Positions 8,273 to 54,157 of a stretch of DNA of 64,000 nt are shown here, piece after piece. The position numbers and the translations under genes were made by a program. The DNA is taken from assembly GCA_037131245.1 (NCBI GenBank), contig JBAXRK010000001.1:152385-216384 (forward strand). The letters are read 5' to 3'. Within the stretch, counting starts at the first letter, position 1. Every line of letters starts with the position of its first letter. This stretch comes from Candidatus Omnitrophota bacterium. Lineage in GTDB: Bacteria; Omnitrophota; Gorgyraeia; Zapsychrales; Fredricksoniimonadaceae. The notes under the pieces are model-generated. The model did not search any database. It was not told the DNA's origin and was given only the letters and a program-made list of their open reading frames with translations.

Positions 8273-8932
8273 TTAAATTTTCGGTTTCCCGGCCCTTAGC
8301 TTACGCAAACGCTCAAGCGTGGAATCCACGCCCTTGGTCTCTTTTTCTTCAACACCGACATCCTTCAGGTTGCTCGTCACCTGCTCCGCCGAATGGGCAT
8401 AGAGCGAGGAGAAATCCACCATCTCATATTCACCCGACTGCTTGAACTCCTCGATGCGCATGGCGCGCGCGGGGCCCGACAGGGTGCCGAGCTCCTTGAG
8501 CATGCCCGAAATACGGTCGGAAAGCTTGTCGCTCACCGCGTCAAGCGAGCCTTTAAGGATCTCGCCCATGTGCAACTTGAAATCATCAAGCGTCATGCCC
8601 GGCCCTGGCCCCGCAAGGGGTGCGCTTGGCGCAACAGGGGCGGGCGGCGGAATAATAGATGCCGGCACGGACGCTGTCGAGGTGATCTCCGGCACTACTA
8701 AACGGACCACCGGCGCCGGTGGCGGCGGCGGGACCCTCGGCTCCGCTTTTTTGCGCGCCAGGCGCTGATTGGTAATAGCGATCAAGCCGAGCAATTCATC
8801 GAGCGAATAATCAACGGTCGAGACTTCCTGGTCCAGGTCGCGGCGCCGCACATGCACATCCTCCAGCCGCCGGGCCAGGATGGGGACGGACGCGATCAGG
8901 TTATCAATATCGGTTGCAGCCGGTGCGCTCAC
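8273..8932 (-). CDS. Hypothetical protein with proline-rich linker
   Basis: The ORF track start at 8968 (non-ATG) overlaps the actin-like gene by 40 nt. An in-frame GTG at 8932..8930 overlaps the upstream TGA (GTGA) and is preceded by GGGGAGGAAAGA, so I prefer 8273..8932. PPPPPAP / PPPAPVAPSAP tracts. Confidence 0.6.
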   Translation of the reverse strand: MSAPAATDIDNLIASVPILARRLEDVHVRRRDLDQEVSTVDYSLDELLGLIAITNQRLARKKAEPRVPPPPPAPVVRLVVPEITSTASVPASIIPPPAPVAPSAPLAGPGPGMTLDDFKLHMGEILKGSLDAVSDKLSDRISGMLKELGTLSGPARAMRIEEFKQSGEYEMVDFSSLYAHSAEQVTSNLKDVGVEEKETKGVDSTLERLRKLRAGKPKI

Positions 8933-10470: not shown

Positions 10471-11463
10471 TTATTCGTCGGCTTCGCTCAATCCCGCCAG
10501 CAGACAACCACGGGCCGTCGCGTAAAGGGGCTCATCGGCCAGCCGGACATCAGCGATATCGATCGGCAATGTCACCTTCTTGAGCTCTTCCTTGAAGACG
10601 TCAACGAATCCGCCGATCATACAGGACCCGCCGGCACACACGATATCGATCGCCTCGGGAAATTGCGGCATTGATTCAGCTTTTTCGAACTTGTTCTTAA
10701 TGTTCACCAGCGTATAGTTGATCAGATTGCGGTAATAGATGCAAACCGCCTCTTCTTCGCGGCCATTGGGCTTGTGGATATTGATGCCTTTTTCCTTGAT
10801 CGCCGTCGCGCGGGTGGTCTTGATGCCCAAAACCTGCGCCACGTTGCGGTCGATCCAGTCGCCGGCGCGACTGGTGGCGAAACTGATCGCGGGGATCGTG
10901 CGGTACGATACGCAAATGTTGAACATGCCGCCGCCGCCCGAAATGCCGATGCCGGTAAAATCCTTGTCTTCCAGCGACGCGAAAACGACCGCGTGGCCTT
11001 CATTCATGGGCTTGGGGTTATAGCCCAGGTTCTTCAGCGCGCCAACAATGACGCTGGTGTGATAAACGATATTGAACGTCGCGTCCACCGGATCGGCGGG
11101 GATCGAAAAATAACACAGCTGATTCTTCACGTCGGGCTTGCCCAGCACCGCTTCGATCAAAAGGCCGAAGATCGGCACCGCGTCCGCTTCACCCGGGCTC
11201 ATGACGCCATCCGACATCGGGCGGCGCACGACCTTGTTCATGATATTCGCCAGCTCAAAGGCGGAATCGCCGAGCACATACACCTTATTGCCCATTTCAG
11301 CGTACTGCACTTTCTGCTTCTTGAGCATGTTCTTGGTGAATGAATTCGCTTCGATGTCCAGGAAACAATGGCGCATGAGCTTCAGCTTGATCTTGCCGTC
11401 AGCTCCCTGCTCGGCCCCGACCAGGTTCATTGTCCCGACGTCCAACCCTTTGACTTTACCCAT
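10471..11463 (-). CDS. Actin-like ATPase (MamK/Mad28 class)
   Basis: GLDVGTMNLVG, GIGISGGGGMFNICVS, IVCAGGSCMIGGF and the C-terminal ARGCLLAG motif match the actin/MreB/ParM fold signature order. Confidence 0.8.
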   Translation of the reverse strand: MGKVKGLDVGTMNLVGAEQGADGKIKLKLMRHCFLDIEANSFTKNMLKKQKVQYAEMGNKVYVLGDSAFELANIMNKVVRRPMSDGVMSPGEADAVPIFGLLIEAVLGKPDVKNQLCYFSIPADPVDATFNIVYHTSVIVGALKNLGYNPKPMNEGHAVVFASLEDKDFTGIGISGGGGMFNICVSYRTIPAISFATSRAGDWIDRNVAQVLGIKTTRATAIKEKGINIHKPNGREEEAVCIYYRNLINYTLVNIKNKFEKAESMPQFPEAIDIVCAGGSCMIGGFVDVFKEELKKVTLPIDIADVRLADEPLYATARGCLLAGLSEADE

Positions 11464-31404: not shown

Positions 31405-31878
31405 ATGAAAAACCATCCCAGCGAACTTCAGAGCAAGATCAACAGCCAGGGGTACCGGATCACCAAACCCCGCCAAAAGATCATTGACGCTTTAAGCCAT
31501 TCCAAGAACTGCCTGAGCGTTGATGATATTTACATGGCCATACGGGCCAAAGGAGATAGTGTCGGGGTCACCACGATCTACCGGGCGGTCGATAGCCTGG
31601 CCAAGGCCGGTATTATCAGAAAATTATCACTTATCAGTGGAAAAACCTCTTACGAGCTCATTGACCCTGAGCTTAAGCACCACCATCACCTGATCTGCCG
31701 CAGCTGCCAGCGGGTCATCGATTACTCTGACTTTATTAATGAAGAGGTACTGCTCATCAAGAAACTGGAAAAGATCGTTTCACAGACCCATCATTTTGAT
31801 ATTGAAGACCATATGCTGTCGTTTACCGGGCTTTGTCAGCTATGTCAAAAACCAGGATCAATGAATAAAGTGAGGTGA
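31405..31878 (+). CDS. fur: Fur-family metalloregulator
   Basis: wHTH (RITKPRQKIIDAL...VTTIYRAVDSL), HHHHLIC regulatory site, CRSC and CQLC structural Zn pairs. AAGGAA RBS. Confidence 0.85.
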   Translation: MKNHPSELQSKINSQGYRITKPRQKIIDALSHSKNCLSVDDIYMAIRAKGDSVGVTTIYRAVDSLAKAGIIRKLSLISGKTSYELIDPELKHHHHLICRSCQRVIDYSDFINEEVLLIKKLEKIVSQTHHFDIEDHMLSFTGLCQLCQKPGSMNKVR

Positions 31879-32098: not shown

Positions 32099-32929
32099 AT
32101 GAATAACGAGATAACCATCTTCGAAGATTACAAGATCCGCCGTATTTATGATGAGCCGACGGAAACATGGCACTTCTCCGTTGTGGACGTCATTCAAGCC
32201 TTAATTCAACAGCCTGACTACCAGACAGCCAGAAAATACTGGAATAAACTTAAAGAGCGCCTTCGTCAGGAAGGAAGTCAGTCGGTGACAAAATGTCACC
32301 AACAGAAATTGCTTGCGGCCGATGGTAAAAAGTATCTAACCGATGTCGCGACAGCGGAAATCCTTCTGCGCCTGGTTCAGTCCATCCCCAGCCCTAAAGC
32401 TGAACCGATCAAACTCTGGCTCGCCAAAGTCGGCTATGAACGCATGCAAGAAATAGCCGACCCCGCCCTTTCGCTTAACCGTGCCAGGGAAACCTGGAAA
32501 AAACACGGCCGCAGCTCTCAATGGATCCAGCAACGGATGCTGGGCCAGGAGACTCGCAACAAATTAACGGATTACTGGAAAGAGAATGATATTAACAAGC
32601 CTGACGAATTTGCCATTCTGACAAACATCATTCATCAGGAATGGGCCGAAGTCACTGTCAAAGAACACAAGGCCCTGAAGGGACTAAAAACACAGAACTT
32701 GCGCGATCATATGAACGAGGCGGAACTTATCTTTACCGCCCTTGCCGAAATGTCCAGCCGTAAGATCGCTGAAAGCGTGGAAGCCAAAGGCATGCCGGAA
32801 AATGCGCGGGCCGGCAAGAAGGGAGGCGGCATCGCCCGTAAAGCCAGGATCGAGTTAGAAACCGCCACCGGCAAGAAAGTCATTTCGGCCGGCAATTATT
32901 TGACGACGAAAGAGTTACCACGGCCGTAA
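32099..32929 (+). CDS. Bro-N domain protein (antirepressor-like)
   Basis: ITIFEDYKIRRIYDEPTETWHFSVVDVIQAL... and IQSIPSPKAEPIKLWLAKVGYERMQEI resemble the widespread Bro-N family. Visibly AT-richer than surrounding genes. The 3' end overlaps the convergent CDF-NifX gene by 15 nt. Confidence 0.7.
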   Translation: MNNEITIFEDYKIRRIYDEPTETWHFSVVDVIQALIQQPDYQTARKYWNKLKERLRQEGSQSVTKCHQQKLLAADGKKYLTDVATAEILLRLVQSIPSPKAEPIKLWLAKVGYERMQEIADPALSLNRARETWKKHGRSSQWIQQRMLGQETRNKLTDYWKENDINKPDEFAILTNIIHQEWAEVTVKEHKALKGLKTQNLRDHMNEAELIFTALAEMSSRKIAESVEAKGMPENARAGKKGGGIARKARIELETATGKKVISAGNYLTTKELPRP

Positions 32930-34009
32930 CCACTGGATACGGCTGCGGCCGAAACCGGTGGCCGCATTGGCTGAAGAAGCCATTTTCAAGCGACCGGCTT
33001 GATAATCCGCGAAGGTTGAGCCCACCGTCTGCAGCGTATCAAAATAATAGATCCTGACCCCCTGCCCTCTTAATTCCGAGAACATATGCGGTCCCACCTT
33101 CCCCGCCAGCACCACGCCGATCCGGCTCTCACGGACGATCGACCCGAGAATAATACTTTCTTCCACGTTATACATCCGGCTATTGTTAGCTCGGATCGAG
33201 GTGGTTTTTTTCTTAAGGTCGAGCAGGCAGAAATACGGCGCCCGCCCCAGCAACGTTGAGACCGGACCGTCCCACATGCCGGTTTCAGCCGGAATAAGGA
33301 TCATGTTGCGCCGCGCCAGTGTGTCCTCCACGCCGCGCGTAAAAACGAACATGATCGCAACCGCCAACGCCGCCAGCGAAAATGCCACGCGTTGTTTTGT
33401 TTCCAGAGAGACCTTGGCGCGCTCCTTTTCAAAATACTCTTTGAAGATCTGCATCGCGCCCTGGATCTGAAAGCCCCCGATCACGATCGCCCCGATCGGG
33501 TCACAGTAAACCAATCCCATGACCGCGAGAAATATCCCCAGGAACCCGAAACAAGCCGCGAAAAGATTCGTCTTGTTCTGGATCATGAACATAAATAAAT
33601 TGCTGTTCTTCGGATCGCGCTCCAGCGCTTTCGATGAGATGTAATACAAGTAGCCATTAGCCAGGATCGAAATTTTTGCGACCAACAAGGCAAAGAGTCC
33701 CGGGCGGGCCGGAATACGCGACACAATGATCGCGATATTATCCGCGCAGATCCACACTCCCGACAGGAACATGATCGCCCCGATCAGAATGCTCTGCGTC
33801 GCAAGAGAGAGCCTTTTGTCCCTGGCCCCGTGATAATTGATCCCGAACGCGAAACAATCCGAGAACGAATGCACCGCCTCAGCCACCAGCACTTTACTGC
33901 CGGTCACCAATCCCACCACCGCCTTGATCAGCGTCATACTGATGTGATAGATCAGGGACCAGGAAACAACCTTTTCCTGCTCAGCGGCATCGGCTTTTTT
34001 ACGGTTCAT
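32915..34009 (-). CDS. CDF-like membrane domain fused to a C-terminal NifX/NafY-like (FeMo-cofactor-carrier fold) domain
   Basis: Start moved to ATG 34009..34007, which overlaps the upstream TGA (ATGA). TM2-type AEAVHSFSD. No CDF cytoplasmic domain; instead an extra TM and LGRAPYFCLLD...GVVLAGKVGPHMFSELRGQGVRIYY. Confidence 0.7.
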   Translation of the reverse strand: MNRKKADAAEQEKVVSWSLIYHISMTLIKAVVGLVTGSKVLVAEAVHSFSDCFAFGINYHGARDKRLSLATQSILIGAIMFLSGVWICADNIAIIVSRIPARPGLFALLVAKISILANGYLYYISSKALERDPKNSNLFMFMIQNKTNLFAACFGFLGIFLAVMGLVYCDPIGAIVIGGFQIQGAMQIFKEYFEKERAKVSLETKQRVAFSLAALAVAIMFVFTRGVEDTLARRNMILIPAETGMWDGPVSTLLGRAPYFCLLDLKKKTTSIRANNSRMYNVEESIILGSIVRESRIGVVLAGKVGPHMFSELRGQGVRIYYFDTLQTVGSTFADYQAGRLKMASSANAATGFGRSRIQWLRPW

Positions 34010-34914
34010 TTCAATTTCCCCCGAATATGAACAAGGCACTTGCGGCATTTATCTCTTTTATCGCGCGCCGCCCCCTGCATCTGGCCGTCGCACCAGGTAT
34101 GGTCGATCTCCCAGCAATGCTTCCCATGATTGGGGAAAGACGGGCACTGCACCTGCCGCTCAGCGGGGCAATTTAAGATCTCCCAGCAATTCGACTTCAT
34201 CGTGGTCGAGCAATAAACCTTAAGGTCGCCGGTGCGCTTTTTCATCTCCAGGATCAATTTATCCCGCCCGTCCTTGCTATCAAGGTCCTTCCGGCCGATA
34301 TCCTCCAGGAACCCCTCCATGTTCTTGCAATAATCCCTGACCGCGTTAAGCAAATGCTTGGTGCGCGCGTTCACTTCCTCATCAGGCATCGCGTCGCGCC
34401 AGACCTCGAAACCGCCAAGCACGCGCCCTTTCTTATCGATCAGCGGGCCGGCGGAAACCACTATCGAATGCTCCCTGTTAATACGGTCGATCACCTTGAC
34501 CCTTTTGCCGATCACGGACTTGCGCGTTTTCATCGCCTGCTTGATCGCACAATGATTAGTGCACAGGTCGCTCTTGAAAATATCCGCGCAAACCACCTTT
34601 CCGATCGCGTCATTCAGGTTCAAGCCCGTAAAATCAAGACAGGCCGGATTCATGAACTGGATCTTCATATCCTTGTCGACCACGAAGAACGGATAGGTGG
34701 ACGCGCGTAAAATACTCACCGCGAAGGTCGCCATGTCTTCAAAATCACCGAAAGCCTTGGTCTTGGACGAAAGGAAGTCCAGGAAATCATCCTGCGCCCC
34801 ATCCTCACCCGAACCAGCCTTCTTTTTTGAACCGCGATGCTCTTCGGTGGTTTTAAGCGGCGCCTTTACCGCCCTGAGTTCACTGAGGATCTTGGCCATC
34901 CGGTCGAAGTTCAT
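34006..34914 (-). CDS. Stand-alone PAS sensor with C-terminal double CWE cysteine-rich (two-CW-like) domain
   Basis: PAS core FFVVDKDMKIQFMNPACLDFTG... with CADIFKSDLCTNHC. C-terminus NCWEILNCPAERQVQCPSFPNHGKHCWEIDHTWCDG...CRKC. Confidence 0.65.
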   Translation of the reverse strand: MNFDRMAKILSELRAVKAPLKTTEEHRGSKKKAGSGEDGAQDDFLDFLSSKTKAFGDFEDMATFAVSILRASTYPFFVVDKDMKIQFMNPACLDFTGLNLNDAIGKVVCADIFKSDLCTNHCAIKQAMKTRKSVIGKRVKVIDRINREHSIVVSAGPLIDKKGRVLGGFEVWRDAMPDEEVNARTKHLLNAVRDYCKNMEGFLEDIGRKDLDSKDGRDKLILEMKKRTGDLKVYCSTTMKSNCWEILNCPAERQVQCPSFPNHGKHCWEIDHTWCDGQMQGAARDKRDKCRKCLVHIRGKLK

Positions 34915-37444: not shown

Positions 37445-37888
37445 TTATCCCCCCGGCCGGACTCCCACCCGACCGTACACCAGCGTCTGTTGCCCGCCGC
37501 GCTCCACCGTGAACGTCACCCGTTCATCGATCCCTGTTGTCTGGACCAGATATTGAAACTGATCCTGTCCTGTCACGCTGGTCCCATTCCAGCGCTGCAG
37601 CACATCCCCTTCCTGAAGCCCAGCTTCCTCTGCCGGCGAACCGTTAAATATCCTGGATACCACTATGCCGCTGGCCGCGACCAGGTCATATTGCCGACGA
37701 AGTTCCGGTGTGAGCTCGATGGTCTCTACCCCCAGCCACACCCGGGGATCCACTGTCTTAAACCTGAAATTCCAGCCCTCGGCAAAAACCAATACGATAT
37801 AAATCAGCGCGATCAGAAGCAACCCCGCCACCATCGCCATGGACGACCCGCTGGGACCTTCTTTTAATGGGCGCGTGGTTGTGATCAT
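37445..37888 (-). CDS. Membrane-anchored single-PDZ protein
   Basis: Start moved to ATG 37888, which overlaps the upstream TGA (ATGA). TM MAMVAGLLLIALIYIVLVF. PDZ WLGVETIELTPELRRQYDL...SPAEEAGLQEGDVLQRWNG. Confidence 0.7.
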   Translation of the reverse strand: MITTTRPLKEGPSGSSMAMVAGLLLIALIYIVLVFAEGWNFRFKTVDPRVWLGVETIELTPELRRQYDLVAASGIVVSRIFNGSPAEEAGLQEGDVLQRWNGTSVTGQDQFQYLVQTTGIDERVTFTVERGGQQTLVYGRVGVRPGG

Positions 37889-38715
37889 TTGCTCCCCTTT
37901 GTGCCAACTCTGATCTTCACACTGTCGCACTTTACGCAATTAAAACACCGCACGCACACCGAACTTCCGGGATCATCGCTGATATTGATATCAACTGGAC
38001 AGTCCTGCCGACACTCCTGGCAATCCTTGCACTTCTTCGGGTCAACATCGAGCTGAACTAGGCTGTGACGGTTAAAGAATCCGAAGATCGCGCCCATCGG
38101 ACAAACCAGCTTGCAGAAAGGCCGTTTAGCAAAAACAAAGTAGGCGACGAACAAAGCCGCGATAAAGATCTTAAGAACAAATAACCAACCCAGTTTTTGG
38201 ATCGACACCGCCGGCTCACCGTACACCGGAATGGTCGGGTTCCAGATCACCCACGGCACTGCCGCTTGAATGGTCCCCATCGGGCAGAGCTTGGAGAACA
38301 TCGTTTCCTGCATAATGAACGGCAGCAGAATGACCAGAAGTCCCAGGATCAAATATCGAAGTCCGGCAAGTTTCAGCGGGATGCGGACCTTGAAGGTCTT
38401 GATCTTATAGAGCAGATCCTGAAGCAACCCGAACGGGCAAAGCCAACCGCAAGCCAAACTCCCCACCGTGATGCCGATCGCTGTCAAATACCCCGCCAGC
38501 AGATACGGGAATTTATGCATGGTCATGTAATGCTGAATGGTCCCGATAGGACATGAAAAAAATGCTGACGGGCAGCTATGGCAATTGAGGAACGGAACAC
38601 AGGAGCTCTTAAGCTCGCCCTGATAAACCTGCTTGGTCTTGAAGAACCCCAGATAAGCGTTCGTGACCACTAGCGTGATCCATTGCACCGCCTCTCTTAT
38701 TCTCTGCAAATCCAT
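37885..38715 (-). CDS. Membrane polyferredoxin, NapH/MauN-like 4Fe-4S protein (Mad6-like, tentative)
   Basis: Start moved to MDLQRIRE (ATG 38715, GGAG 7 nt upstream). CHSCPSAFFSCPIG, CGWLCPFG, CPMG, CKDCQECRQDCP, CVRCFNCVKC. Confidence 0.75.
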   Translation of the reverse strand: MDLQRIREAVQWITLVVTNAYLGFFKTKQVYQGELKSSCVPFLNCHSCPSAFFSCPIGTIQHYMTMHKFPYLLAGYLTAIGITVGSLACGWLCPFGLLQDLLYKIKTFKVRIPLKLAGLRYLILGLLVILLPFIMQETMFSKLCPMGTIQAAVPWVIWNPTIPVYGEPAVSIQKLGWLFVLKIFIAALFVAYFVFAKRPFCKLVCPMGAIFGFFNRHSLVQLDVDPKKCKDCQECRQDCPVDINISDDPGSSVCVRCFNCVKCDSVKIRVGTKGSK

Positions 38716-38851: not shown

Positions 38852-39201
38852 TGGGCCTCGATCCAGGTCATGTTCTCTTTGCAGCGCGGGCATACCGGAA
38901 ATCCGGTCTTGCCGCAGGCCGGACACACAAAATTCCCGATGAACCCATTCCAGAACATCGCCACTTTACAGGTCGGGCAAAGAGGGACGCCTTTTTCCCC
39001 GCACCTCGGGCAAACCGCGCTCACATTGTGCTGGATGACTTTCATCACCACATTGCTTTTCACCAGCCCCCGCGCCGATAATGACTTGAACTTCCCTACT
39101 GAATAAGCGATGAACACAAAAACAAAAATAGCGAACAGCGCCCCCACGATCATCAGGCGGCTGCGGTCCTCATCGGCAATCTCGCGCATTTGGCCGGCCA
39201 T
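38848..39201 (-). CDS. Membrane-anchored double zinc-ribbon protein
   Basis: Start moved to ATG 39201 (TGATG overlap with the upstream stop). TM MIVGALFAIFVFVFIAY. CPRC-x7-CPTC and CPAC-x7-CPRC. Confidence 0.65.
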   Translation of the reverse strand: MAGQMREIADEDRSRLMIVGALFAIFVFVFIAYSVGKFKSLSARGLVKSNVVMKVIQHNVSAVCPRCGEKGVPLCPTCKVAMFWNGFIGNFVCPACGKTGFPVCPRCKENMTWIEAQ

Positions 39202-39908
39202 CAAAACACTCTCACTTTCGGCTTCACGCCACCGGCCGCGACCATCGGCGCGGCCACTGCCACCACTTCGTGCATCGCGCCGCCGCATTTCGGGCATTGC
39301 GCCGGCATGATCCCGTCAGCCGCTGTTTCAGAAATACGATAATCACAATCAAAGCAGATATAGAACTTGCCCTGAACGATACGGCCCAAATTCGCCTGCG
39401 TGTCAAAAGTCGCGCAAGCCACCGGCTTTTTACTCCCGGTGATCCCGAAATGCGCCGGAACATTCTCGGCGGTTAATTTCGTCAGTCCATCCGGAAAATC
39501 ATTGAGCGCCTGCCAGGCTGAGCCATGAACACCGGTATAAACCTCGATACGCGCCTGGTCAAAAACCCGGAATGGCTCAAACCCGACATTATTCCCCAGG
39601 ACCGCGTCGACCTTCATTCCGGCTATCATCTGGGCGCTGCGTAACCCGGCGGCATGCTGAGCATCCAAATATTTATTCGGTACCGCTTTATATGTTTTCT
39701 TGGCACGGTCGCAAATGATGTAGTAGGGCGCCCGGCCGAACAGATACGACACGGGACTATTGATGTCCGGTCCCGTTGCCGCGATGGCCACGATCACCGC
39801 TTTGCGTCTGCTTAAGATCACCGGATTGTCGTTCTCATAGAACGCCTGCCCGACCACCAGCGTGACGGCCGCAAAAAAAATCATTAAGAAGATCATTTCC
39901 CGGCGCAT
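39201..39908 (-). CDS. NifX/NafY-like (FeMo-cofactor-carrier fold) domain protein with C-terminal zinc ribbon
   Basis: Signal/TM. IVAIAATGPDINSPVSYLFGRAPYYIICD...VDAVLGNNVGFEPFRVFDQARIEVY. CFDC...CPKC. Confidence 0.75.
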   Translation of the reverse strand: MRREMIFLMIFFAAVTLVVGQAFYENDNPVILSRRKAVIVAIAATGPDINSPVSYLFGRAPYYIICDRAKKTYKAVPNKYLDAQHAAGLRSAQMIAGMKVDAVLGNNVGFEPFRVFDQARIEVYTGVHGSAWQALNDFPDGLTKLTAENVPAHFGITGSKKPVACATFDTQANLGRIVQGKFYICFDCDYRISETAADGIMPAQCPKCGGAMHEVVAVAAPMVAAGGVKPKVRVF

Positions 39909-40340
39909 TTATTTCGTATTCTCCTGGTCCACATGGATCTTTTTGTAATAATCGCACTTCACACAGGACTCTTTACAGTAGATCTTCTGATGACTCAAAT
40001 GCTCACGCAACGTGTAACATTTCTTGGTATCCGAAAGGAACACCACGCAGACTTTGCAATTATGGCTCTCTTTCTTTTTTGATCCCTGATGATATTCCCA
40101 GCAGCGCAGGAAATCATTCTCCATGCCCACCAGCTCCTCAGAGCGAAACGCATTGAGTCCGATCTTGTAGGTCTTAATAAAAGCGATCAGGTCCCCGCGA
40201 TGAATGCGCCGATGGCCCCCGGGTGTGCGGGTGGTCTTGAGCATTCCCTTTTTCGTCCAGTTAATGACGGAAAATCGCGTAACGTTACAGACCTTAGCCG
40301 CCTCGACCGTAGAGAAATACTCTTTCATTGTCTCCCCCAT
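39909..40340 (-). CDS. Excisionase/MerR-type HTH regulator with Cys/His-rich C-terminal domain
   Basis: YFSTVEAAKVCNVTRFSVINWTKKGMLKTTRTPGGHRRI. C-terminus CWEYHQG...HNCKVC...C...CKESCVKC. Confidence 0.7.
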   Translation of the reverse strand: MGETMKEYFSTVEAAKVCNVTRFSVINWTKKGMLKTTRTPGGHRRIHRGDLIAFIKTYKIGLNAFRSEELVGMENDFLRCWEYHQGSKKKESHNCKVCVVFLSDTKKCYTLREHLSHQKIYCKESCVKCDYYKKIHVDQENTK

Positions 40341-40426: not shown

Positions 40427-41029
40427 CTATTTCGGCGTCGGAATTGGTAAAAACCCTTCCATCTCCCCTTCGCCGACGAAAATGATCCCCTTCTTCTTGC
40501 TCGCGCCGCGCAAGTAAGTGAACTTGTAATCCTTCTCCGGCGGAAGTGCCGCCAGGTCGGTTTTAAACTGCTCGAAGCCCTCGATCGACTTATCATTAAA
40601 AGAAAGAAGAATATCACCCGCGACCAGCCCCGCTTTATCCGCCCAGGAGCTGCCCATGACGCCCGTGATCTTCACTTTGCCGCCGGCCACTTCGATGGCT
40701 TCTACGCCCATGATCTTAACCAGCTCGGGTGCATTCTGACCCTGAGCGATCACCGTTGTTCCCGTCACGGCTGCCGCCATAGCCCCGGCCTGAAGCGTCG
40801 CGACCGGCTGATAAGCACCGGCACCCGCTGGAATTGGACAGCCGGGCGTGAACGCCACGTGCTGCTGGGCCTGCTCGACAGGATCCTTATCCCCGAACAT
40901 GTCCGCGGTCTTGATCTCGTGGAAAGCGCCAAGTGCGGCGTCCTGCACCGGATTGCTGGTGAACGCGGTGATCAAAAGAACCACCAGGAAACCAATGCCG
41001 CAGAGGATGATAATGTTTTCTTTGGTCAT
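40427..41029 (-). CDS. Membrane-anchored single-PDZ protein
   Basis: TM IIILCGIGFLVVLLITAF. PDZ IMGVEAIEVAGGKVKITGVMGSSWADKAGLVAGDILLSFND. Confidence 0.7.
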   Translation of the reverse strand: MTKENIIILCGIGFLVVLLITAFTSNPVQDAALGAFHEIKTADMFGDKDPVEQAQQHVAFTPGCPIPAGAGAYQPVATLQAGAMAAAVTGTTVIAQGQNAPELVKIMGVEAIEVAGGKVKITGVMGSSWADKAGLVAGDILLSFNDKSIEGFEQFKTDLAALPPEKDYKFTYLRGASKKKGIIFVGEGEMEGFLPIPTPK

Positions 41030-41044
41030 TCTTTCACCTGAGAA

Positions 41045-41224
41045 TTAGGCCGCCTGAGCGTCCGGTCTACCCAATAAGAAATACAACACCGCGCCGATCG
41101 CCGGGACGGAGAGGATCACGACCGCCCACAAGATCTTCTTCACTAACGATGTCCTCAACTTTAACAGATCAACAATGGCCACCACATCGATCACAACAAT
41201 AAGTCCGAAAATTAATGTTTCCAT
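41045..41224 (-). CDS. Small two-TM protein of PLD-nuclease-N-terminal (PLDc_N) type
   Basis: I prefer the start METLIFGL (ATG 41224), preceded by a G-run and AGCTTC. ...ILWAVVILSVPAIGAVLYFLLGRP is the family signature. Confidence 0.6.
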   Translation of the reverse strand: METLIFGLIVVIDVVAIVDLLKLRTSLVKKILWAVVILSVPAIGAVLYFLLGRPDAQAA

Positions 41225-41230
41225 GAAGCT

Positions 41231-41241
41231 CCCCCCCCCCC
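41231..41241 (-). repeat. Homopolymer tract (11 G on the coding strand) serving as or overlapping the RBS of the small PLDc_N-type gene
   Basis: The plus strand shows 11 consecutive C, 6 nt upstream of the ATG at 41224. Confidence 0.85.
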
Positions 41242-41268
41242 GTTTTGTACTGTTTATTACCATTCTAG

Positions 41269-41316
41269 GTCTCAAAGGTCTGTCCTTTGAAAAACCCATG
41301 TAAGTCTCAAAAGTCT
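41269..41316. promoter_or_regulatory. Direct repeat GTCTCAAARGTCT x2 in the 89-nt gap (candidate operator / internal promoter)
   Basis: 41269..41281 gtctcaaaggtct and 41304..41316 gtctcaaaagtct. The minus strand also offers TTCAAA-18 nt-TAGAAT overlapping the first copy. Confidence 0.4.
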
Positions 41317-41330
41317 CGTAACCCCCATGC

Positions 41331-42359
41331 TCAAACTAAAAACAATTTCACTGCCAAAACGATCAGGATCACCACGAACAAATACAGCGTCATCTTCGCG
41401 TTAAGCTTCGGCGCGATGCGCGCCCCGACCTGGGCACCCACGATAACGCCAATGCCCATCCAGAGCGCCTCGGCATAACAAATATTGCCCAGGAACACGT
41501 GCGGCGCGAGCGCAATGGCGCACGTCAGCAAGGTCACAAAGTGGCTGGTCGCGGTGGCAATATGCGACGGATAACGGAGTAAAAAGATCAATATCGGAAC
41601 CTGGAAAACACCGCCGCCGATACCCAGAAAACCGCAAAAGAACCCCAGCGCCAGGTTAAGCGCCACGCCCATTTTATCGTTCGAATAATAATCGTACTTG
41701 ATACCGAACGCGTCCATGAATTTCACATGGCGAAAACCCGCGGCCTTGGCTTCCTTCAATAATGTTTTTTCCTGCGCCGCGCTCTTGTCCAGCCGGCCGA
41801 TGCTGAAGATCGTATAGAACGCCAGGAAGATCAAAAAGATGCCGAAAATAATATTAAAGAAAGACAAATTGATCAAATGGTGCGTAAAGCTCGAGATGAG
41901 CGCGCCCGGCATAGCCGCGAGCGTAAACTTCAAGCCGCCTTTATAATCGATGCGCTTCTGCATCGAATAGCCTAAGCAACCGGAACCCGCGTTCAAAAAA
42001 ACAATGAACAATGATGTCGCCACCAGCAATTCATTTTCCCAACCATAAAAGAAAACCAGCAAGGGAAGAATGATGGGGCCCCCGCCGATACCGACGATGG
42101 TGCCGTAACAGCCGATCGCAAATCCGGTGAAGAGCAACAGCCACCAGGCCGGAAGGTCGGCCGGAACTGCCGCCGCACCCGGAGCCGCAAGGGGCTGCAC
42201 GCCCGCCAAAGCCGCCTGCATGGTCGTTACTGTCTGCGGACCGGCATGATTGGAAGAAGAGAACATCGCGATAATGATCACGATCATCAACGCGATCGCC
42301 ACCCCGATCTTGGCATAGCTCTTCCAGTCGTATGTCATTTCATCGTTCATGTGGAACAT
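41331..42359 (-). CDS. TauE/SafE-family membrane protein (stand-alone equivalent of the MamO C-terminal domain)
   Basis: Two-fold repeated 4-TM units with GTIVGIGGGPIILPLL and FLGIGGGVFQVPIL motifs. 342 aa. Confidence 0.8.
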   Translation of the reverse strand: MFHMNDEMTYDWKSYAKIGVAIALMIVIIIAMFSSSNHAGPQTVTTMQAALAGVQPLAAPGAAAVPADLPAWWLLLFTGFAIGCYGTIVGIGGGPIILPLLVFFYGWENELLVATSLFIVFLNAGSGCLGYSMQKRIDYKGGLKFTLAAMPGALISSFTHHLINLSFFNIIFGIFLIFLAFYTIFSIGRLDKSAAQEKTLLKEAKAAGFRHVKFMDAFGIKYDYYSNDKMGVALNLALGFFCGFLGIGGGVFQVPILIFLLRYPSHIATATSHFVTLLTCAIALAPHVFLGNICYAEALWMGIGVIVGAQVGARIAPKLNAKMTLYLFVVILIVLAVKLFLV

Positions 42360-42377: not shown

Positions 42378-44180
42378 TTAAGGTAATAAGCTTAAAAAAA
42401 TAATATAGAACGTCGAAAGCACAAGAAAAATGATAGCGACCGGGATCCCCCGCCGGCCGTAGCTGGCAAAGGTAAGCCCTTCCTTATTCTTGAGGTCTTT
42501 CCCCATTTCTTCAACCAGCGTCTGCGAAACGATCCCCGCGCTCGCGCCTGAAATACACGCGCACGCACCGGCAATAGAGCCCAGGTTCAGCGCCCACCAC
42601 ACGACATCGGTAAAATCCGCGAACCCCGAATGCAGGACGATCGGCACCAGGAAAGCCGTGGCCGGACCAGCGTTCATGAGCGCGGTAAAGATCGCCATGG
42701 TGAACATCAGCAGGATCGGATAAAGGATCTTGTTGCCCATCGACATCGTCACCAGCGCATCAGAAACCACTTTAAGCATCCCGGAATACAGCGCGCCGCC
42801 GACGATCAAAAAGAGCGCGATAAAGAACAGCATGTCAGTGAGGCTGATCCGCTTGATCACATCCTTGGCCTTATGGTTCTCGATGGCCAGAAGCAGGAAG
42901 CCGCCGCCCAGCGCGATCGGCGCCAGATGGACCTTGAAGAACGGCAGGACCAGGAACGCCACCAGAACCGCGCCCAGAATAATAAGCACCCGCTTGATCC
43001 GGGGCCAATCCATGTGCATCTCTTCAAGCTCGCCCTCAACCTTGGCCAGGAATTCTTTTTCCAGCTTGGCGGAATGATGCTTCTGATTATGACGGAACTC
43101 GGTATACCACATATACCAGAGAAAGACGCCCAGGAAGATCGCGCACATCGGGCCCATCACGATCAAGAAATCAATAAAGGTCAGGCCCGCGGCGGACGCC
43201 ATGAGCATATTGGAGAAGTCCCCGACCGGCGTCATATTCCCGCCGATGACGGACGAAATAAGCTCGGCCACGATCACAGGGATAGGGTCGAAATTGAGCC
43301 CGCGCGCGATATAGATCGTGATCGGGATAACAACCAGAATGATCGAAATGTTGTTCACAAAAGATGACGACAAGGCGGTCACCACGCACAGCGCAAAGAC
43401 CACTTCGATCGTTTTGGCCCGGAACATCACCACGATCTTTTTCGCGCTGTATTCAAAGACGCGCAGGTCATCAAGGAATATCGCAAAGATGCTCATGCCC
43501 ATAAAGATGAAGATGGGGCTCATGTGGATGGCATCGAACGCTTCGGTTTGATTGTAAAAACCGAATGCCGTGCCGGCCAGCAGCATTAATACCGCGCCCA
43601 GCACCACACAGACCGTGCGATTGAAGAGATTAAGGAAAAGCATACCGAAGGTGATCGCCACAATGACCAGCACGACCAGGATATTTCGTCCGCTGGTGCC
43701 AAACAGGTCGACCCCGGCATTAAGCGGCAATTTCTCGCTCATCGTGAGCTTCATGCCGTTACGGGAGATCACGAACGACACCTTATCCCCCGGCTTGTTC
43801 TGCGACATCAGGAAAGATAAATGCGACGCCGACTGGATATCGATATTGTTATACTTGAGGATCACGTCCCCGCGGCGGATATCAATAAGGCGCCGGGCAT
43901 TACCTTTAGGAACATTATTGACCAGCACGCCCGCCACGATCGGCAAATTGAACTCTTTGGCGATAACCGGATTGACCGTCACGCCGTCAAACTCGATGGC
44001 ATTCGACCCGCCCGCCTGCGCCAGACGCGGCTGGCCGTGCGTGGGCATGGTGCGGCTGTCCATGAACAACGCTGTCAGCACAATGACCACAATGATAGCG
44101 ATCGCCGCTTCCATAAAAGGGAAGCTTTTAACGTGCTTGAGGTTGTCTTCCTGAATGGTCCTTCTGATATTTAACGCCAT
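42378..44180 (-). CDS. N-terminal TM + PDZ fused to an ArsB/NhaD-superfamily permease (MamN-like)
   Basis: PDZ FDGVTVNPVIAKEFNLPIVAGVLVNNVPKG...GDVILKYNN, then ~10-12 TM helices with a central soluble loop. 600 aa. Confidence 0.75.
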   Translation of the reverse strand: MALNIRRTIQEDNLKHVKSFPFMEAAIAIIVVIVLTALFMDSRTMPTHGQPRLAQAGGSNAIEFDGVTVNPVIAKEFNLPIVAGVLVNNVPKGNARRLIDIRRGDVILKYNNIDIQSASHLSFLMSQNKPGDKVSFVISRNGMKLTMSEKLPLNAGVDLFGTSGRNILVVLVIVAITFGMLFLNLFNRTVCVVLGAVLMLLAGTAFGFYNQTEAFDAIHMSPIFIFMGMSIFAIFLDDLRVFEYSAKKIVVMFRAKTIEVVFALCVVTALSSSFVNNISIILVVIPITIYIARGLNFDPIPVIVAELISSVIGGNMTPVGDFSNMLMASAAGLTFIDFLIVMGPMCAIFLGVFLWYMWYTEFRHNQKHHSAKLEKEFLAKVEGELEEMHMDWPRIKRVLIILGAVLVAFLVLPFFKVHLAPIALGGGFLLLAIENHKAKDVIKRISLTDMLFFIALFLIVGGALYSGMLKVVSDALVTMSMGNKILYPILLMFTMAIFTALMNAGPATAFLVPIVLHSGFADFTDVVWWALNLGSIAGACACISGASAGIVSQTLVEEMGKDLKNKEGLTFASYGRRGIPVAIIFLVLSTFYIIFLSLLP

Positions 44181-44195
44181 GAGACTCGTCCTTGT

Positions 44196-45017
44196 TTACT
44201 TTGCCGCGTTGACTTTTACGTTATCCATCGGGCCGGTGGGCATGGGTTCATTCTGCTGCTCCACCTGCTCGCGGTTACCGGCATTCGACAAACCGGGCTC
44301 GCGATAATCGATCGTGGCGTTCTTATCAAGATCCCCGTCGACCACCGCGTAATGGAACATGTTCTCGCGATAGCCGAAGACATAAGCATAAATACAACCC
44401 GGGATCTCTTTAACAGCAGCGTGGAAAATACTCGCCGCTTTGTTATATTCCATGCGGCTATCCGCAATACGGTTTTCGCTAATGATCAACGCGTTCATCA
44501 GGTCCTGGAAATTCGCGCTGAGCTTGAGGTCCGGATAGGCTTCGGCGACCGCGAGCAATTTGGTCATCGCGCTCTTGAACAGCTCGGGCTTGACCTTGTC
44601 GAAATCAGCGATACCGTTGGCCTTGAGCGCCTCAAGGACCATTTCCGACTTGCCCGAATTACCCGCGCGGGAATCAGCCATATATTTATACATCATCCGC
44701 TCATGCTCGGCATAAGCCAGCACCATGCGCGCCAGATTCGACGCCAGGTTACGCCGGCGCTGCAACTGCACCTCGATCTGATGCTGCTCCATGTCGGTAA
44801 AACGCGACAGGTTAACGAACTTATTGTAGTAATAGATGCCGGGCAGAATGATCACGACCGCGATCACGATCCCCCACACGCCCTCTTTGGTTTGCAGGTT
44901 ATTAAAGTCGATCTTCTCCCACCAATGCTTGCCGACGGGCCGCAGCTCGCCCAGCTCGCTGGGGAAAAGTTTTTTCATTGATTCGGATATCATGCTCATG
45001 ACTTCGATCTCCTGCAA
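44196..45017 (-). CDS. mamQ: LemA-family protein (MamQ-like)
   Basis: Single TM WGIVIAVVIILPGIYYY. QLQRRRNLASNLARMV, AYPDLKLSANFQDLMNALIISENRIADSRMEYNKAASIFHAAVKEIPG. Confidence 0.8.
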   Translation of the reverse strand: MQEIEVMSMISESMKKLFPSELGELRPVGKHWWEKIDFNNLQTKEGVWGIVIAVVIILPGIYYYNKFVNLSRFTDMEQHQIEVQLQRRRNLASNLARMVLAYAEHERMMYKYMADSRAGNSGKSEMVLEALKANGIADFDKVKPELFKSAMTKLLAVAEAYPDLKLSANFQDLMNALIISENRIADSRMEYNKAASIFHAAVKEIPGCIYAYVFGYRENMFHYAVVDGDLDKNATIDYREPGLSNAGNREQVEQQNEPMPTGPMDNVKVNAAK

Positions 45018-49686: not shown

Positions 49687-51300
49687 TTATTTGATCGCCA
49701 TGTGGGCGACGTTCGGATCCTGCATGCCATTATTCTGCGCGACTTCATTCTCGACGGCCTGTTGCTGCATTGGAACATTCTGCATCGCCACGGGTTGAGC
49801 CTGTACTGCCTGCGCCGGCGCGATCTGATGGCAATTGGAACAAACACCGCGATAAGCGTGCGGCATCGTCGCATTAGCGGCGATCGTGATATCAGGTTTT
49901 ACCGTATGACAATTTTCGCAAACACCCCGGAACTGGTGAGGCATCACCGCATCGCGAAAGATCGGCGGAGCACTGTTAGGCACGGGATTCGCCACCGGAG
50001 CGTTTTGGACCATGGCGATCCGCGACGCCGGATTGACCCGCTTCATGATCTGCCCGCAATTGGGACAACGCGGAAATTCATTCATGCCCTGCTCGGAATG
50101 CATCAACCAACCGCAATTGGGACATTTAAAACCATTGGTCATGTCCGGATTCGGGCTGAAAAAATTCGCCTGAGTGCCCATCATCATGGCCTGCTGACCC
50201 ATGGCCTGCTGAGCCATCGCTTGCTGAGCCATCGCTTGCTGACCGAAGGCCTGATTCTGCATCTGCATTTCCGGCTGTTCAACGAACGGGTTCACGAGAC
50301 GATTCTGATTCTGGGCCTGCATATCAAGCGCCATCGACCCGCCGCAATTCGGGCACTGTGGAAACCCATCGCCTTGCTGGCTACTTTTCATGCGCCAGTT
50401 ACAGATAGGACAAACATACGCCCGCTGGCCCCAACCGAACCAGCCGGCTTGCATTGCTCCCGCGCCCCCCTGGGCCATGGCTTGCTGTTGGGCCAACTGC
50501 TGCTGAAGGATCTGCTGCTGATACAAATAACCCGGGCCGTTGCCGTTATGAAGCATGCCGATGCCTTGAAAACCACCGGGGAGAGGACAAGTCGGTTGCT
50601 GAGCCTGCATCATATAATTCATCGGCATATTCTGCATGCCCATGCCTTGCTGCATCATATTTCCCTGCATGCCCATCGGCATATTCGCTGCCATCCCGCC
50701 GCCCATCCCCCCTACGGGGGCCATGCCTTGCATCTGCATTTGCTGTTGAACAGGAATTTGCTGGGCTTGCCCGGGCATCGGAGAGGCCGGAATTCTCGCC
50801 TGACGATATAAACTGATCACTTTCTGCGCCCGGCCCTGATACCCGCCGAACACCCTGATGCCGAACTGCGAAAGCGTATTGTAGGTCTGCTGATCCACAC
50901 TGCCGACGATGACCGCTTCCTCGCCCTTGCTGGCGATCAAATACGTCATCTGCTGGCTGGGCCCCTGGCCGAAATAAGGGTTCTTAACCACTTCCATCAA
51001 TTTCTTGTTGAGCGGATTGACGACCAGAAAATAACGGGCCTCGGACAAGGTCGGCGCGACAGGCGCCGCCAGCGAACGGCCGCCGGTCGCGATAACGATC
51101 ATCCCGCAAGCCGGGTTACCTTTGGCCGTGCCGGTCGATTCCGCCGAGAACAGGGCATATGTCCCGACGATCAAGATGAGCACGATCGCGGAAAAAATGA
51201 AGATAACGTTCAGGTCGGTATCCTTGAACCGTTCTTCGACCTTTGCCAGGATCGACTTAAGATCAATATTGAACGCGGCGCCCTCAGACTTCTTAGCCAT
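49687..51300 (-). CDS. Mosaic protein: TM + NifX/NafY-like domain + Met/Gln-rich low-complexity region + two zinc ribbons + two magnetochromes
   Basis: LSEARYFLVVN...AVIVGSVDQQTYNTLSQFGIRVF. aa 171-380 are Q/M/G-rich with QQAMAQQAMAQQAMGQQAM. CPIC..CPNC and CPNC..CPNC. HQFRGVCENCH and HAYRGVCSNCH. Confidence 0.8.
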   Translation of the reverse strand: MAKKSEGAAFNIDLKSILAKVEERFKDTDLNVIFIFSAIVLILIVGTYALFSAESTGTAKGNPACGMIVIATGGRSLAAPVAPTLSEARYFLVVNPLNKKLMEVVKNPYFGQGPSQQMTYLIASKGEEAVIVGSVDQQTYNTLSQFGIRVFGGYQGRAQKVISLYRQARIPASPMPGQAQQIPVQQQMQMQGMAPVGGMGGGMAANMPMGMQGNMMQQGMGMQNMPMNYMMQAQQPTCPLPGGFQGIGMLHNGNGPGYLYQQQILQQQLAQQQAMAQGGAGAMQAGWFGWGQRAYVCPICNWRMKSSQQGDGFPQCPNCGGSMALDMQAQNQNRLVNPFVEQPEMQMQNQAFGQQAMAQQAMAQQAMGQQAMMMGTQANFFSPNPDMTNGFKCPNCGWLMHSEQGMNEFPRCPNCGQIMKRVNPASRIAMVQNAPVANPVPNSAPPIFRDAVMPHQFRGVCENCHTVKPDITIAANATMPHAYRGVCSNCHQIAPAQAVQAQPVAMQNVPMQQQAVENEVAQNNGMQDPNVAHMAIK

Positions 51301-51312
51301 ACCCCATCTCCA

Positions 51313-51930
51313 TTATTTAACGACCGGACCGTACTGGAACGCCTGCCCCAACACCGGTGAACCTAATTGCCATGTCCCCTTGTTCGGCCCGAACAGCGGA
51401 CCATACTGATATTCAAAAGGGACCGTGATATATAAATTTTCTTTACCGCGGAACACGTCGAGCAGAATGCCGTTGGTAAAACGCGTATTCTGCGCCGCGT
51501 CCACAAACTCGCGGCTGTTACGCACCGGATGGCGGTTAAGCGACACGATCACGTCGCCCATCTTGACGCCGTTGCGGAACGCTTCCTGCGTGCCCTGATC
51601 GACCACGAACATCCCCTTGATACGGCCGGGGATCTTGAATTCCTTGCGCAGCATCGGCGACACCGGCGCGATCTCCATGCCCAGCCACACCAGCGTATCG
51701 GTCTTTTTAAAGACCTGCGGCTTCTGCGCTTTCATCTCGGCCGTTTCCGGCAGCACTTCGGTCGCCCTTAAATACTCAACGCCCCAGGTCAATGTCAAAA
51801 TAACACCCGTCACGATCGCCGCCAGCACCCAGGGTTTCTCGCGCGCGAATTCCACCGTTTGCTTGATGACCTTCTGCCAAGGAGCAAACTCTTTTTCCGC
51901 CGCCTTGTGGTGTGTTTTTTTCTGTGTCAT
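51313..51930 (-). CDS. Membrane-anchored single-PDZ protein
   Basis: TM WVLAAIVTGVILTLTWGV. PDZ WLGMEIAPVSPMLRKEFKIPGRIKGMFVVD...GDVIVSLNR. Confidence 0.7.
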   Translation of the reverse strand: MTQKKTHHKAAEKEFAPWQKVIKQTVEFAREKPWVLAAIVTGVILTLTWGVEYLRATEVLPETAEMKAQKPQVFKKTDTLVWLGMEIAPVSPMLRKEFKIPGRIKGMFVVDQGTQEAFRNGVKMGDVIVSLNRHPVRNSREFVDAAQNTRFTNGILLDVFRGKENLYITVPFEYQYGPLFGPNKGTWQLGSPVLGQAFQYGPVVK

Positions 51931-53779: not shown

Positions 53780-54157
53780 TTAAACTTTTTTCTCGCTACC
53801 CGGCTTAACCATCTTATGGGCAAAAGCCGCGATGACCTTACCTGATGCGAAAGCACCCCTTGAAACCATGCTATCGATCTTGGCCTTCTGTTTAACCAGA
53901 AAAGCGCCAACCACAGCCGGCTCTTTAACCGCCTCAACTGCCTTTTGGACAGCATTGGGCACAAGGTCAACAGCCGCCTGATCGCTGCTATGACTCTTTT
54001 TAACTAAGTCTAATACTGCTTTACGGGGGATGCGTTGATGGCCGCCAAGGGTGGCGGTGGATTCAAGTTTATGCTTCTTGACCCAGTTAAGAACGGTGAA
54101 ACGGGTGACGTGACAGATCTTGGCGGCTTCAGTAGTTGTTAAGTAATCGGTATGCAT
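53780..54157 (-). CDS. Excisionase/MerR-type HTH regulator, first gene of the cluster
   Basis: YLTTTEAAKICHVTRFTVLNWVKKHKLESTATLGGHQRI is paralogous to the HTH at 39909..40340. Confidence 0.7.
   Translation of the reverse strand: MHTDYLTTTEAAKICHVTRFTVLNWVKKHKLESTATLGGHQRIPRKAVLDLVKKSHSSDQAAVDLVPNAVQKAVEAVKEPAVVGAFLVKQKAKIDSMVSRGAFASGKVIAAFAHKMVKPGSEKKV

Follow-up and report, generated by a model that had tools for sequence, protein, structure and literature searches.

The stretch analysed here (the window) comprises 64,000 nucleotides of a Candidatus Omnitrophota contig (JBAXRK010000001.1, positions 152,385 to 216,384) and is an Omnitrophota magnetosome gene cluster (MGC). One of its genes (42378..44180, minus strand) consists of one unbroken open reading frame (ORF) of 600 residues plus a stop codon with an ATG start. 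Its product is a true fusion, in which a signal-anchor helix, a PDZ domain and a MamN-like permease of the ArsB/NhaD fold are parts of one polypeptide. Its sequence matches P0001, an 'SLC13 family permease' of a Candidatus Omnitrophota bacterium, with 100% identity. A Shine-Dalgarno-like AAGGA, read from the sequence (44189..44193, minus strand, 8 nt from GGA to ATG), lies directly past the mamQ stop codon, and the N-terminus (MALNI...) is kept in an alignment of homologs, which supports the ATG as the start.

The fusion protein, hereafter the PDZ-permease, begins with a positively charged tail (residues 1–21, 44118..44180; this and all further features of the protein are encoded on the minus strand), which carries four Lys/Arg residues and is predicted to be cytoplasmic. 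The enrichment in Lys/Arg is conserved across the fused family (4–6 residues). The tail is followed by a single hydrophobic helix, TM0 (residues 22–40, 44061..44117), which was delineated by hydropathy and is predicted to be a signal anchor running from in to out. In the AlphaFold (AF2) model this helix spans residues 22–37, and the hydrophobic stretch of ~19 residues is long for a cleavable signal peptide. An HtrA-type PDZ domain (residues 61–150, 43731..44000), found with Pfam, NCBIfam, Foldseek and PDB profiles, is predicted to be lumenal/periplasmic. Residues 162–600 (42381..43697) form an elevator-type, MamN-like permease of the ArsB/NhaD fold (IT superfamily, CitMHS), assigned by the CitMHS and NCBIfam MamN models and by a structure match. 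Pfam PDZ_2 matches residues 84–148 (E 6.5e-9; 36.4 bits, the gathering score being 27), and CitMHS matches residues 183–533 (E 1.5e-45). The first-pass annotation of this DNA had described an N-terminal transmembrane (TM) helix and a clear PDZ domain ahead of a permease of the ArsB/NhaD type with 10–12 TM helices. Domain annotation with hidden Markov models (HMMs) and the AlphaFold model agree with this layout; the peptide quoted in that annotation corresponds to residues 64–112, and the permease fold, according to the model and its match to ArsB, consists of 10 TM helices and two re-entrant hairpins.

The cluster also encodes free-standing anchor-PDZ proteins (40427-41029, 37445-37939 and 51313-51930), which could conceivably lie upstream of a permease, and the first-pass annotation had named an artefact at the junction as the event that would undo the fusion. 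In that case, a chimeric contig, a sequencing frameshift or an error of gene calling would have joined a small PDZ gene to a separate permease gene. The probability of this is close to nil. A search of 5.8 billion proteins (90%-identity clusters, compiled from NCBI, JGI, ENA and Logan assemblies) returned ~47 independent clusters of continuous ORFs of ~600 residues with the same PDZ and CitMHS architecture and 49–89% identity, all named ones being from Omnitrophota. In a 32-sequence family alignment, the PDZ domain, linker and permease are in register, many PDZ residues are invariant, and neither the junction nor the linker contains a frame break. With the architecture kept in these ~47 independently assembled clusters and, furthermore, in 17 genomic loci, an assembly artefact is ruled out. 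In other phyla, the junction is collinear as well, with one HMM stretch covering the PDZ domain and the permease.

The fusion is conserved in sequence and in place. Mean pairwise identities in the family alignment are 63.5% for the PDZ domain and 63.7% for the permease, compared to 42–50% for the tail and linkers, and the PDZ domain is thus as constrained as the transporter. The C-terminus of the fused family, -LS(L/I/M)(L/I/M)P, is conserved, too, and that of the TauE permease encoded next to it is -KLFLV. Its gene is flanked upstream by that of MamQ (LemA family, 44196..45017, minus strand) and downstream by that of a TauE permease of the 'MamO-Cter' type (41331..42359, minus strand), both identified with Pfam/NCBIfam and both adjoining the fusion gene in 17/17 related loci. 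These loci, fetched from other genomes (GTDB species genomes), all have the gene order MamM-MamB-MamA-MamQ-fusion-TauE-(PLDc_N)-PDZ. Most of the genomes are isolates, and their names fit the bin naming of Lin et al. 2020 (PMC7602337). From conservation and gene order, the fusion is a core feature of Omnitrophota and candidate division KSB1 clusters that is not peculiar to the source genome.

Some genomes carry more than one copy of the gene. In Omnitrophota nDJH6bin13 (L012:988-4758, JADFYD010000074.1), two PDZ-permeases with 64% and 63% identity to the window protein are encoded in tandem between mamQ and TauE. The metagenome-assembled genome (MAG) of Omnitrophota nDJH6bin5 contains two MGCs (L007 and L015, JADFYJ010000024.1 and JADFYJ010000001.1), each with a PDZ-permease (74% and 75% identity), which could be a true duplication or two strains mixed in one bin.

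The best Foldseek match of the permease is ArsB (10tp_A, TM-score of 0.80 normalised to ArsB), followed by DASS elevator transporters. The mean predicted local distance difference test score (pLDDT) of the AlphaFold model is 73.7, i.e. of moderate confidence only. At the thresholds used, neither phmmer nor profile searches led to ArsB, and the match is one of fold only. The ArsB of L. ferriphilum (2026 cryo-EM structure, 10tp) has 10 TM helices and two hairpins, both termini on the periplasmic side and a cytoplasmic central linker, and Asp112 and Asp148 were proposed as its H+-coupling residues (PMC13381914). The window permease resembles it in the inverted repeat of 10 TM helices and two hairpins and in the Asn residues at both hairpin tips, but the two proteins share only ~18% identity, and ArsB has neither accessory domains nor a link to magnetosomes; their substrates are very likely different. 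A phmmer alignment to VcINDY maps residues 257–295 to hairpin 1 with the tip VNNIS and residues 299–331 to a broken helix. N277-N278 in this tip (43347..43352) correspond to the substrate-site motif SNT of VcINDY and, in ArsB, to Asn111. Each of the hairpin-tip residues N277 and N503 is kept in at least 90% of the fused family, which would fit an active transporter. The charged central loop (residues 360–391, 43008..43103), which contains an amphipathic helix, is predicted to connect the two inverted repeats on the cytoplasmic side because it is analogous to the cytoplasmic Arg199–Val221 linker of ArsB.

Since the termini of ArsB are periplasmic and the hairpin and broken helix can be mapped with VcINDY, the permease is expected to begin on the outer side. 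The PDZ domain is thus predicted to be on the lumenal side of the magnetosome membrane, as are the other six of the cluster. The positively charged tail agrees with an anchor whose N-terminus is inside. The count of seven PDZ domains given in the first-pass annotation is correct: MamE, the three anchor-PDZ proteins and the PDZ-permease contribute one each, and a MamP-like protein has two, the second of which is weakly detected (8.6 bits). Every one of the seven is preceded by a single N-terminal hydrophobic helix, and all are therefore predicted to reside in one compartment, the lumen. A cytoplasmic PDZ domain, which would follow from counting six hydrophobic segments ahead of the central loop, was considered and dropped: in the VcINDY alignment, one pair of these segments makes up the re-entrant hairpin and another pair a single broken helix, and the periplasmic termini of ArsB also speak against it.

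Canonical MamN is a protein of 437 residues with 11 predicted TM helices and no other domain (PMC3905215). It is needed for magnetite crystal formation and has been proposed to function in proton/ion transport, with genetic evidence from Magnetospirillum only (cited in PMC3905215 and PMC7017999). The top model for the window protein is NCBIfam MamN (NF040989, 257.6 bits), positions 4–435 of 437 of which align to residues 168–596. The next transporter models, those of DASS and ArsB, score 32–37 bits (32–51 bits in the wider comparison with other family members), and the MamN model is 5–8 times higher. Other members of the fused family reach 315–341 bits on NF040989, while generic CitMHS relatives reach ~180–200 bits and also match the ArsB/DASS models, with higher scores on ArsB. 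A canonical MamN (P0122, 437 residues, 697 bits on NF040989) aligns through its positions 4–436 to residues 167–597 only, with 30% identity over the full length of the permease (E 9e-40); a second one (P0097) scores 571 bits. Neither the model nor P0122 extends into the PDZ domain, in agreement with the literature (PMC3905215), and the first-pass annotation was right that MamN has no PDZ domain.

An exhaustive profile search of 1.84 billion representative proteins with the fused family gave 17,044 hits in all (465 below 1e-30), the best 150 of which were inspected. Canonical MamN and near-MamN proteins rank above generic CitMHS relatives in this search. In a neighbor-joining (NJ) tree of the permease domain (distance-based, 60 bootstraps, sampled generic relatives as comparison), canonical MamN and all fused groups form a superclade apart from the sampled generic CitMHS proteins in 60/60 bootstraps. 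Of the groups within it, the Omnitrophota PDZ group and the magnetochrome-bearing group are both recovered in 60/60 bootstraps, canonical MamN in 59/60 and the trypsin-bearing group in 58/60. Like MamN (NF040989; Magnetospirillum, Magnetococcia and other Pseudomonadota), which is an ArsB/NhaD-fold CitMHS permease of a mamAB-type cluster, the window permease combines a CitMHS match with the ArsB fold and is encoded inside an MGC beside core mam genes. The two share the Asn at the tip of hairpin 1 (HP1) and the broken-helix motif GGxxTxxGDFxN. They differ in the N-terminal anchor and PDZ domain, which MamN lacks, and in gene order, with the window gene located between mamQ and TauE.

Several observations, however, weigh against a simple equation with MamN. 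The window protein stays below the equivalog cutoff of NF040989 (500 bits), and with 600 residues and an added signal anchor and PDZ domain it does not have the single-domain, ~437-residue architecture of MamN. The Asn at the tip of hairpin 2 (HP2, N503) is present in the fused family but not in canonical MamN, and the substrates of the two may therefore differ. The deep nodes inside the superclade are recovered in 0–38/60 bootstraps, values that are compatible with both orthology and ancient paralogy to MamN and do not separate a loss of the module in MamN from repeated origins of the fusions. The cutoff, the 30% identity, the HP2-tip Asn and the deep nodes would all be accommodated if the permease were no counterpart of MamN at all, but an ArsB/NhaD/CitMHS transporter recruited independently, with another substrate (e.g. 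an anion or metalloid) and with a likeness to MamN limited to that of the superfamily. This is improbable given that the MamN model outscores every other transporter model by such a factor and aligns end to end, that true MamN outranks generic relatives in the profile search of the fused family, that the joint superclade is found in all bootstraps and that both are MGC genes. The assignment made in the first-pass annotation thus stands in the form 'MamN-like' and not as 'MamN': the top model is MamN from end to end, fold and context agree, and so does the superclade in the distance-based tree, but the cutoff and the single-domain architecture do not.

The PDZ domain belongs to the class found in MamE and HtrA proteins. 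NCBIfam matches it to the PDZ1 segment of DegP/DegS/HtrA and to the PDZ of MamE, its PDB profile hits are DegP-like PDZ1 domains, and Foldseek matches it to DegQ (3stj_A, root-mean-square deviation of 2.0 over 87 columns) and DegP (3otp). The AF2 model has the beta strands and the helix (residues 118–126) of a PDZ fold, with a pLDDT of ~70–80. Within the window, its closest relative is the PDZ domain of MamE (50.7 bits). The window protein has in common with MamE and the HtrA proteins DegP, DegQ and DegS the sequence and fold class of PDZ1, the N-terminal signal anchor and the placement on the lumen/periplasm side, but it has no protease domain and the Gly of its carboxylate-binding loop is not conserved.

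According to the first-pass annotation, the fusion hard-wires the permease into a PDZ-mediated interaction network, a proposal that we treat as a hypothesis. The canonical x-Phi-G-Phi loop is not conserved: G66 is found in 9/32 family members and Val in 19/32, and the DegP-based register places the conserved Glu63 at the position of the Gly, with the alignment of this segment being uncertain. Classical binding of C-terminal peptides is doubtful because the Gly is not conserved. The replacement of the Gly by Val/Ile in most members (or by a conserved Glu in the alternative alignment) could indicate that the PDZ domain is not a recognition module wired into a PDZ-ligand network but a structural or metal-handling lumenal domain, such as a lumenal cap, a dimerisation element or an ion-binding surface like the 'crucible' of the MamP PDZ. 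The PDZ domain of MamP (4JJ3, cited in PMC3905215), a structural, iron-binding scaffold and not a peptide binder, is a precedent for this, and the PDZ domains of relatives of the window protein adjoin magnetochrome domains. On the other hand, the predicted groove between strand beta2 and helix alphaB has invariant V69, N70, S117 and H120 and a nearly invariant L124, as would be the case for a conserved ligand site, and the nearest type, the PDZ1 of MamE/HtrA, is a peptide binder. A structural or metal-handling domain outside any such network is, on balance, unlikely by a clear but not a wide measure, and a non-classical ligand or a structural/metal role has to be regarded as a serious alternative to peptide recognition.

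Relatives of the PDZ-permease are fusions in other phyla, too. Among the best 150 of the 17,044 hits, the closest relatives outside Omnitrophota likewise carry extra N-terminal modules. Where a source is named, they come from candidate division KSB1, Elusimicrobiota, Fibrobacteria, Riflebacteria or a MAG labelled Clostridia. PDZ-permeases of 574–609 residues (P0073, P0076, P0078, P0080, P0086) have the layout of the window protein. Magnetochrome domains are added in PDZ-magnetochrome-PDZ-permeases of 842–1009 residues (P0074, P0077, P0082, P0084), a magnetochrome-PDZ-permease of 672 residues (P0079) and a magnetochrome-permease of 815 residues (P0099). A trypsin-like domain is present in trypsin-PDZ-permeases of 788–859 residues (P0081, P0085, P0087, P0088) and a trypsin-permease of 785 residues (P0092). 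Further relatives have only an extra N-terminal anchor helix; a source is named for two of them, one being a MAG of Desulfobacterales and the other one of Elusimicrobiota. In several fused relatives, a single profile match runs continuously from the PDZ domain into the permease, which indicates that the junction is homologous. The window protein is thus one of a series of fusions of MamE/MamP modules with permeases that extends across deep-branching magnetotactic phyla.

All PDZ-permease fusions among the 150 closest representatives fall in the MamN-like superclade, and in the five checked for context (one from the family of the window protein), synteny or a magnetochrome domain ties the fusion to an MGC. 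Among the same 150 hits, generic CitMHS relatives carry no PDZ domain; their N-terminal extensions are Ig-like (CARDB, TIG, CarboxypepD_reg) or unassigned, and more distant SLC13 relatives have TrkA_C inserts instead of PDZ. The survey of homologs proposed in the first-pass annotation therefore gives PDZ-permeases in the MamN-like superclade only, and the possibility raised there, that the architecture is common in homologs unconnected with MGCs, is ruled out for the best 150 of 17,044 hits, with rarer and more distant cases possible.

In KSB1, the fusion gene is found in the order MamA-MamQ-fusion-TauE, the same as in Omnitrophota, and this synteny suggests shared ancestry or transfer between the phyla. 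The trypsin-PDZ-permease gene is located among LemA/MamQ, MamI, MamE-like and CDF genes.

The two clusters have some further features. The KSB1 contig (L020:33-14173, JBHPKY010000010.1) encodes a Nitro_FeMo-Co protein, MamE, magnetochrome proteins, two CDF proteins, MamA, MamQ, the PDZ-permease, TauE and FeoB. The magnetosome-like cluster of a MAG labelled 'Clostridia bacterium' from a subsurface metagenome (L018:2425-22424, WJOT01000131.1) contains LemA/MamQ, MamI, MamE-like trypsin-PDZ proteins, several CDF proteins and an 829-residue fusion of trypsin-like, PDZ and CitMHS domains, as well as chromate-transporter halves, a Zip transporter, TauE and UbiA/polyprenyl synthase. The Clostridia label may be wrong, or this may be an unreported lineage with an MGC.

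In design, these fusions have a known counterpart in MamO, in which a degenerate trypsin-like domain is fused to a TauE permease. In both, a signal anchor and a lumenal module of the MamE family are covalently attached to the N-terminus of a permease of the magnetosome membrane. The window protein has all elements of this design, namely the anchor, the MamE-family lumenal domain, the polytopic permease and the location in an MGC, with its topology taken from homology to ArsB. Some of its relatives come closer still by carrying a trypsin-like domain and a PDZ domain on a MamN-like permease. The two differ in the permease fold, TauE in MamO and ArsB here; furthermore, TauE in the window is a separate ORF without a protease domain, and nothing but a PDZ domain is fused to the permease. 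Because the first residues of the permease would be in the lumen, lumenal modules with a type-II anchor (PDZ, magnetochrome or trypsin) could be attached to it without disturbing its fold, by the same logic as in MamO.

The fusion series is largely undescribed. mamN is annotated in Elusimicrobiota MGCs, and MamN of NORP122 was reported to carry magnetochrome domains (Uzun et al., bioRxiv 10.1101/2022.07.08.499144), so that an extra lumenal module on an Elusimicrobiota 'MamN' had already been noticed, in one sentence and for one genome. This sentence is the sole related statement found in the literature. The text of the same preprint mentions neither Omnitrophota nor a PDZ domain of MamN nor how widely such fusions occur, and the texts of three papers on Omnitrophota MGCs (PMC7602337, PMC7449369, PMC10066038) mention neither mamN nor PDZ, an earlier depiction in a figure being possible.

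Taken together, the gene probably encodes the MamN-type transporter of the Omnitrophota MGC, in which an anchor and a lumenal PDZ domain of the HtrA/MamE type precede an ArsB-fold permease and the PDZ domain couples the transporter to lumenal proteins. By homology, the tail would be cytoplasmic, TM0 would cross the membrane from in to out, the PDZ domain would reside in the lumen (topologically the periplasm), the permease would start from the lumenal side and loop 360–391 would be cytoplasmic. The substrate of the permease and the ligand or role of the PDZ domain we only infer: what the permease carries through the magnetosome membrane is most likely a small ion or solute, and the tethered PDZ domain most likely couples it to the MamE protease, the MamP-like protein and magnetochrome proteins in the lumen. 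The coupling might take the form of partner recruitment or of sensing a lumenal ligand that regulates transport. A caution that applies to this reading as a whole is that the evidence for every member of the fused family is computational. The series of MamN-like permeases joined to MamE/MamP-type lumenal modules would be ancient, with MamO as its known parallel.

MamN is among the least understood of the essential or near-essential magnetosome proteins, and the current hypothesis of its function is proton export during magnetite precipitation. A bolder and rather unlikely extension of the MamN-type transporter proposed here is that in the ancestral MGC such a transporter formed one physical unit with the lumenal redox/protease machinery (PDZ modules of the MamE/MamP type, magnetochrome and trypsin), that the 437-residue MamN of Pseudomonadota is a stripped-down derivative of it, and that in the fused forms the lumenal PDZ domain gates ion/proton export. 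If this were true, the PDZ domain would respond to a partner protein or to the condition of the lumen or the crystal, and there would be a mechanical link between transport, iron redox chemistry and proteolytic checkpoints.

The finding overturns nothing, but it offers leads on the orientation and partners of MamN and generalises the design of MamO. The fusion would place the N-terminus of the MamN fold in the lumen, in line with the new ArsB structure. By 'Rosetta-stone' logic, unfused MamN is predicted to act with MamE/MamP-type proteins in model organisms. MamO is no one-off, and the fusion of a lumenal module to a permease would represent a recurrent design in magnetosome evolution. Moreover, a PDZ-MamN gene between mamQ and TauE could serve as a marker of Omnitrophota and KSB1-type clusters.

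In the order of transcription, the cluster of the window starts with MamE (trypsin and PDZ), an anchor-PDZ protein, a protein with Nitro_FeMo-Co and magnetochrome domains and the MamP-like protein (two PDZ domains and magnetochrome). Its middle part encodes MamM, MamB, MamA, MamQ, the PDZ-permease, the TauE permease, a small PLDc_N protein and the second anchor-PDZ protein. It ends with a helix-turn-helix (HTH) protein, a Nitro_FeMo-Co protein, a 4Fe-4S membrane protein, the third anchor-PDZ protein and three CDF paralogs.

The PLDc_N protein (41045-41299, minus strand; 84 residues, two TM helices) is encoded directly after the TauE gene. It is present in most related Omnitrophota loci and duplicated in one of them (L010). 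The Nitro_FeMo-Co domain, which resembles the dinitrogenase domain that binds the Fe-Mo cofactor, is found in three proteins of the cluster (49687-51300, 39201-39908 and 32915-34048, all on the minus strand); its partners among them are two magnetochrome motifs, a zinc-ribbon-like tail and the C-terminus of a CDF transporter. The domain is found again in the KSB1 cluster.

Two small HTH_17/MerR-like proteins with similar N-termini (39909-40340 and 53780-54157, both on the minus strand) are encoded within the cluster or at its head and are candidate cluster regulators. The C-terminal half of the first one (39909-40340) is rich in Cys, and homologs of both are kept at the same positions in related loci. 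A Fur-family regulator (31405-31878) and a gene with a Bro-N domain, which is phage antirepressor-like (32099-32929), are on the plus strand, opposite to the cluster. They are located at the end of the run of CDF genes of the MGC, before the efflux genes that lie between the MGC and the FeoB region, and the Bro-N gene resembles a remnant of a mobile element.

Downstream of the cluster, the window contains two adjacent actin-like genes (8929-10452 and 10471-11463, both on the minus strand). Both are strong matches to Pfam 'Volactin' (~266 bits each) in place of the MamK-type actin that one might have expected, the longer protein has an N-terminal extension of 180 residues, and the pair adjoins ParA-like and HEAT-repeat genes.

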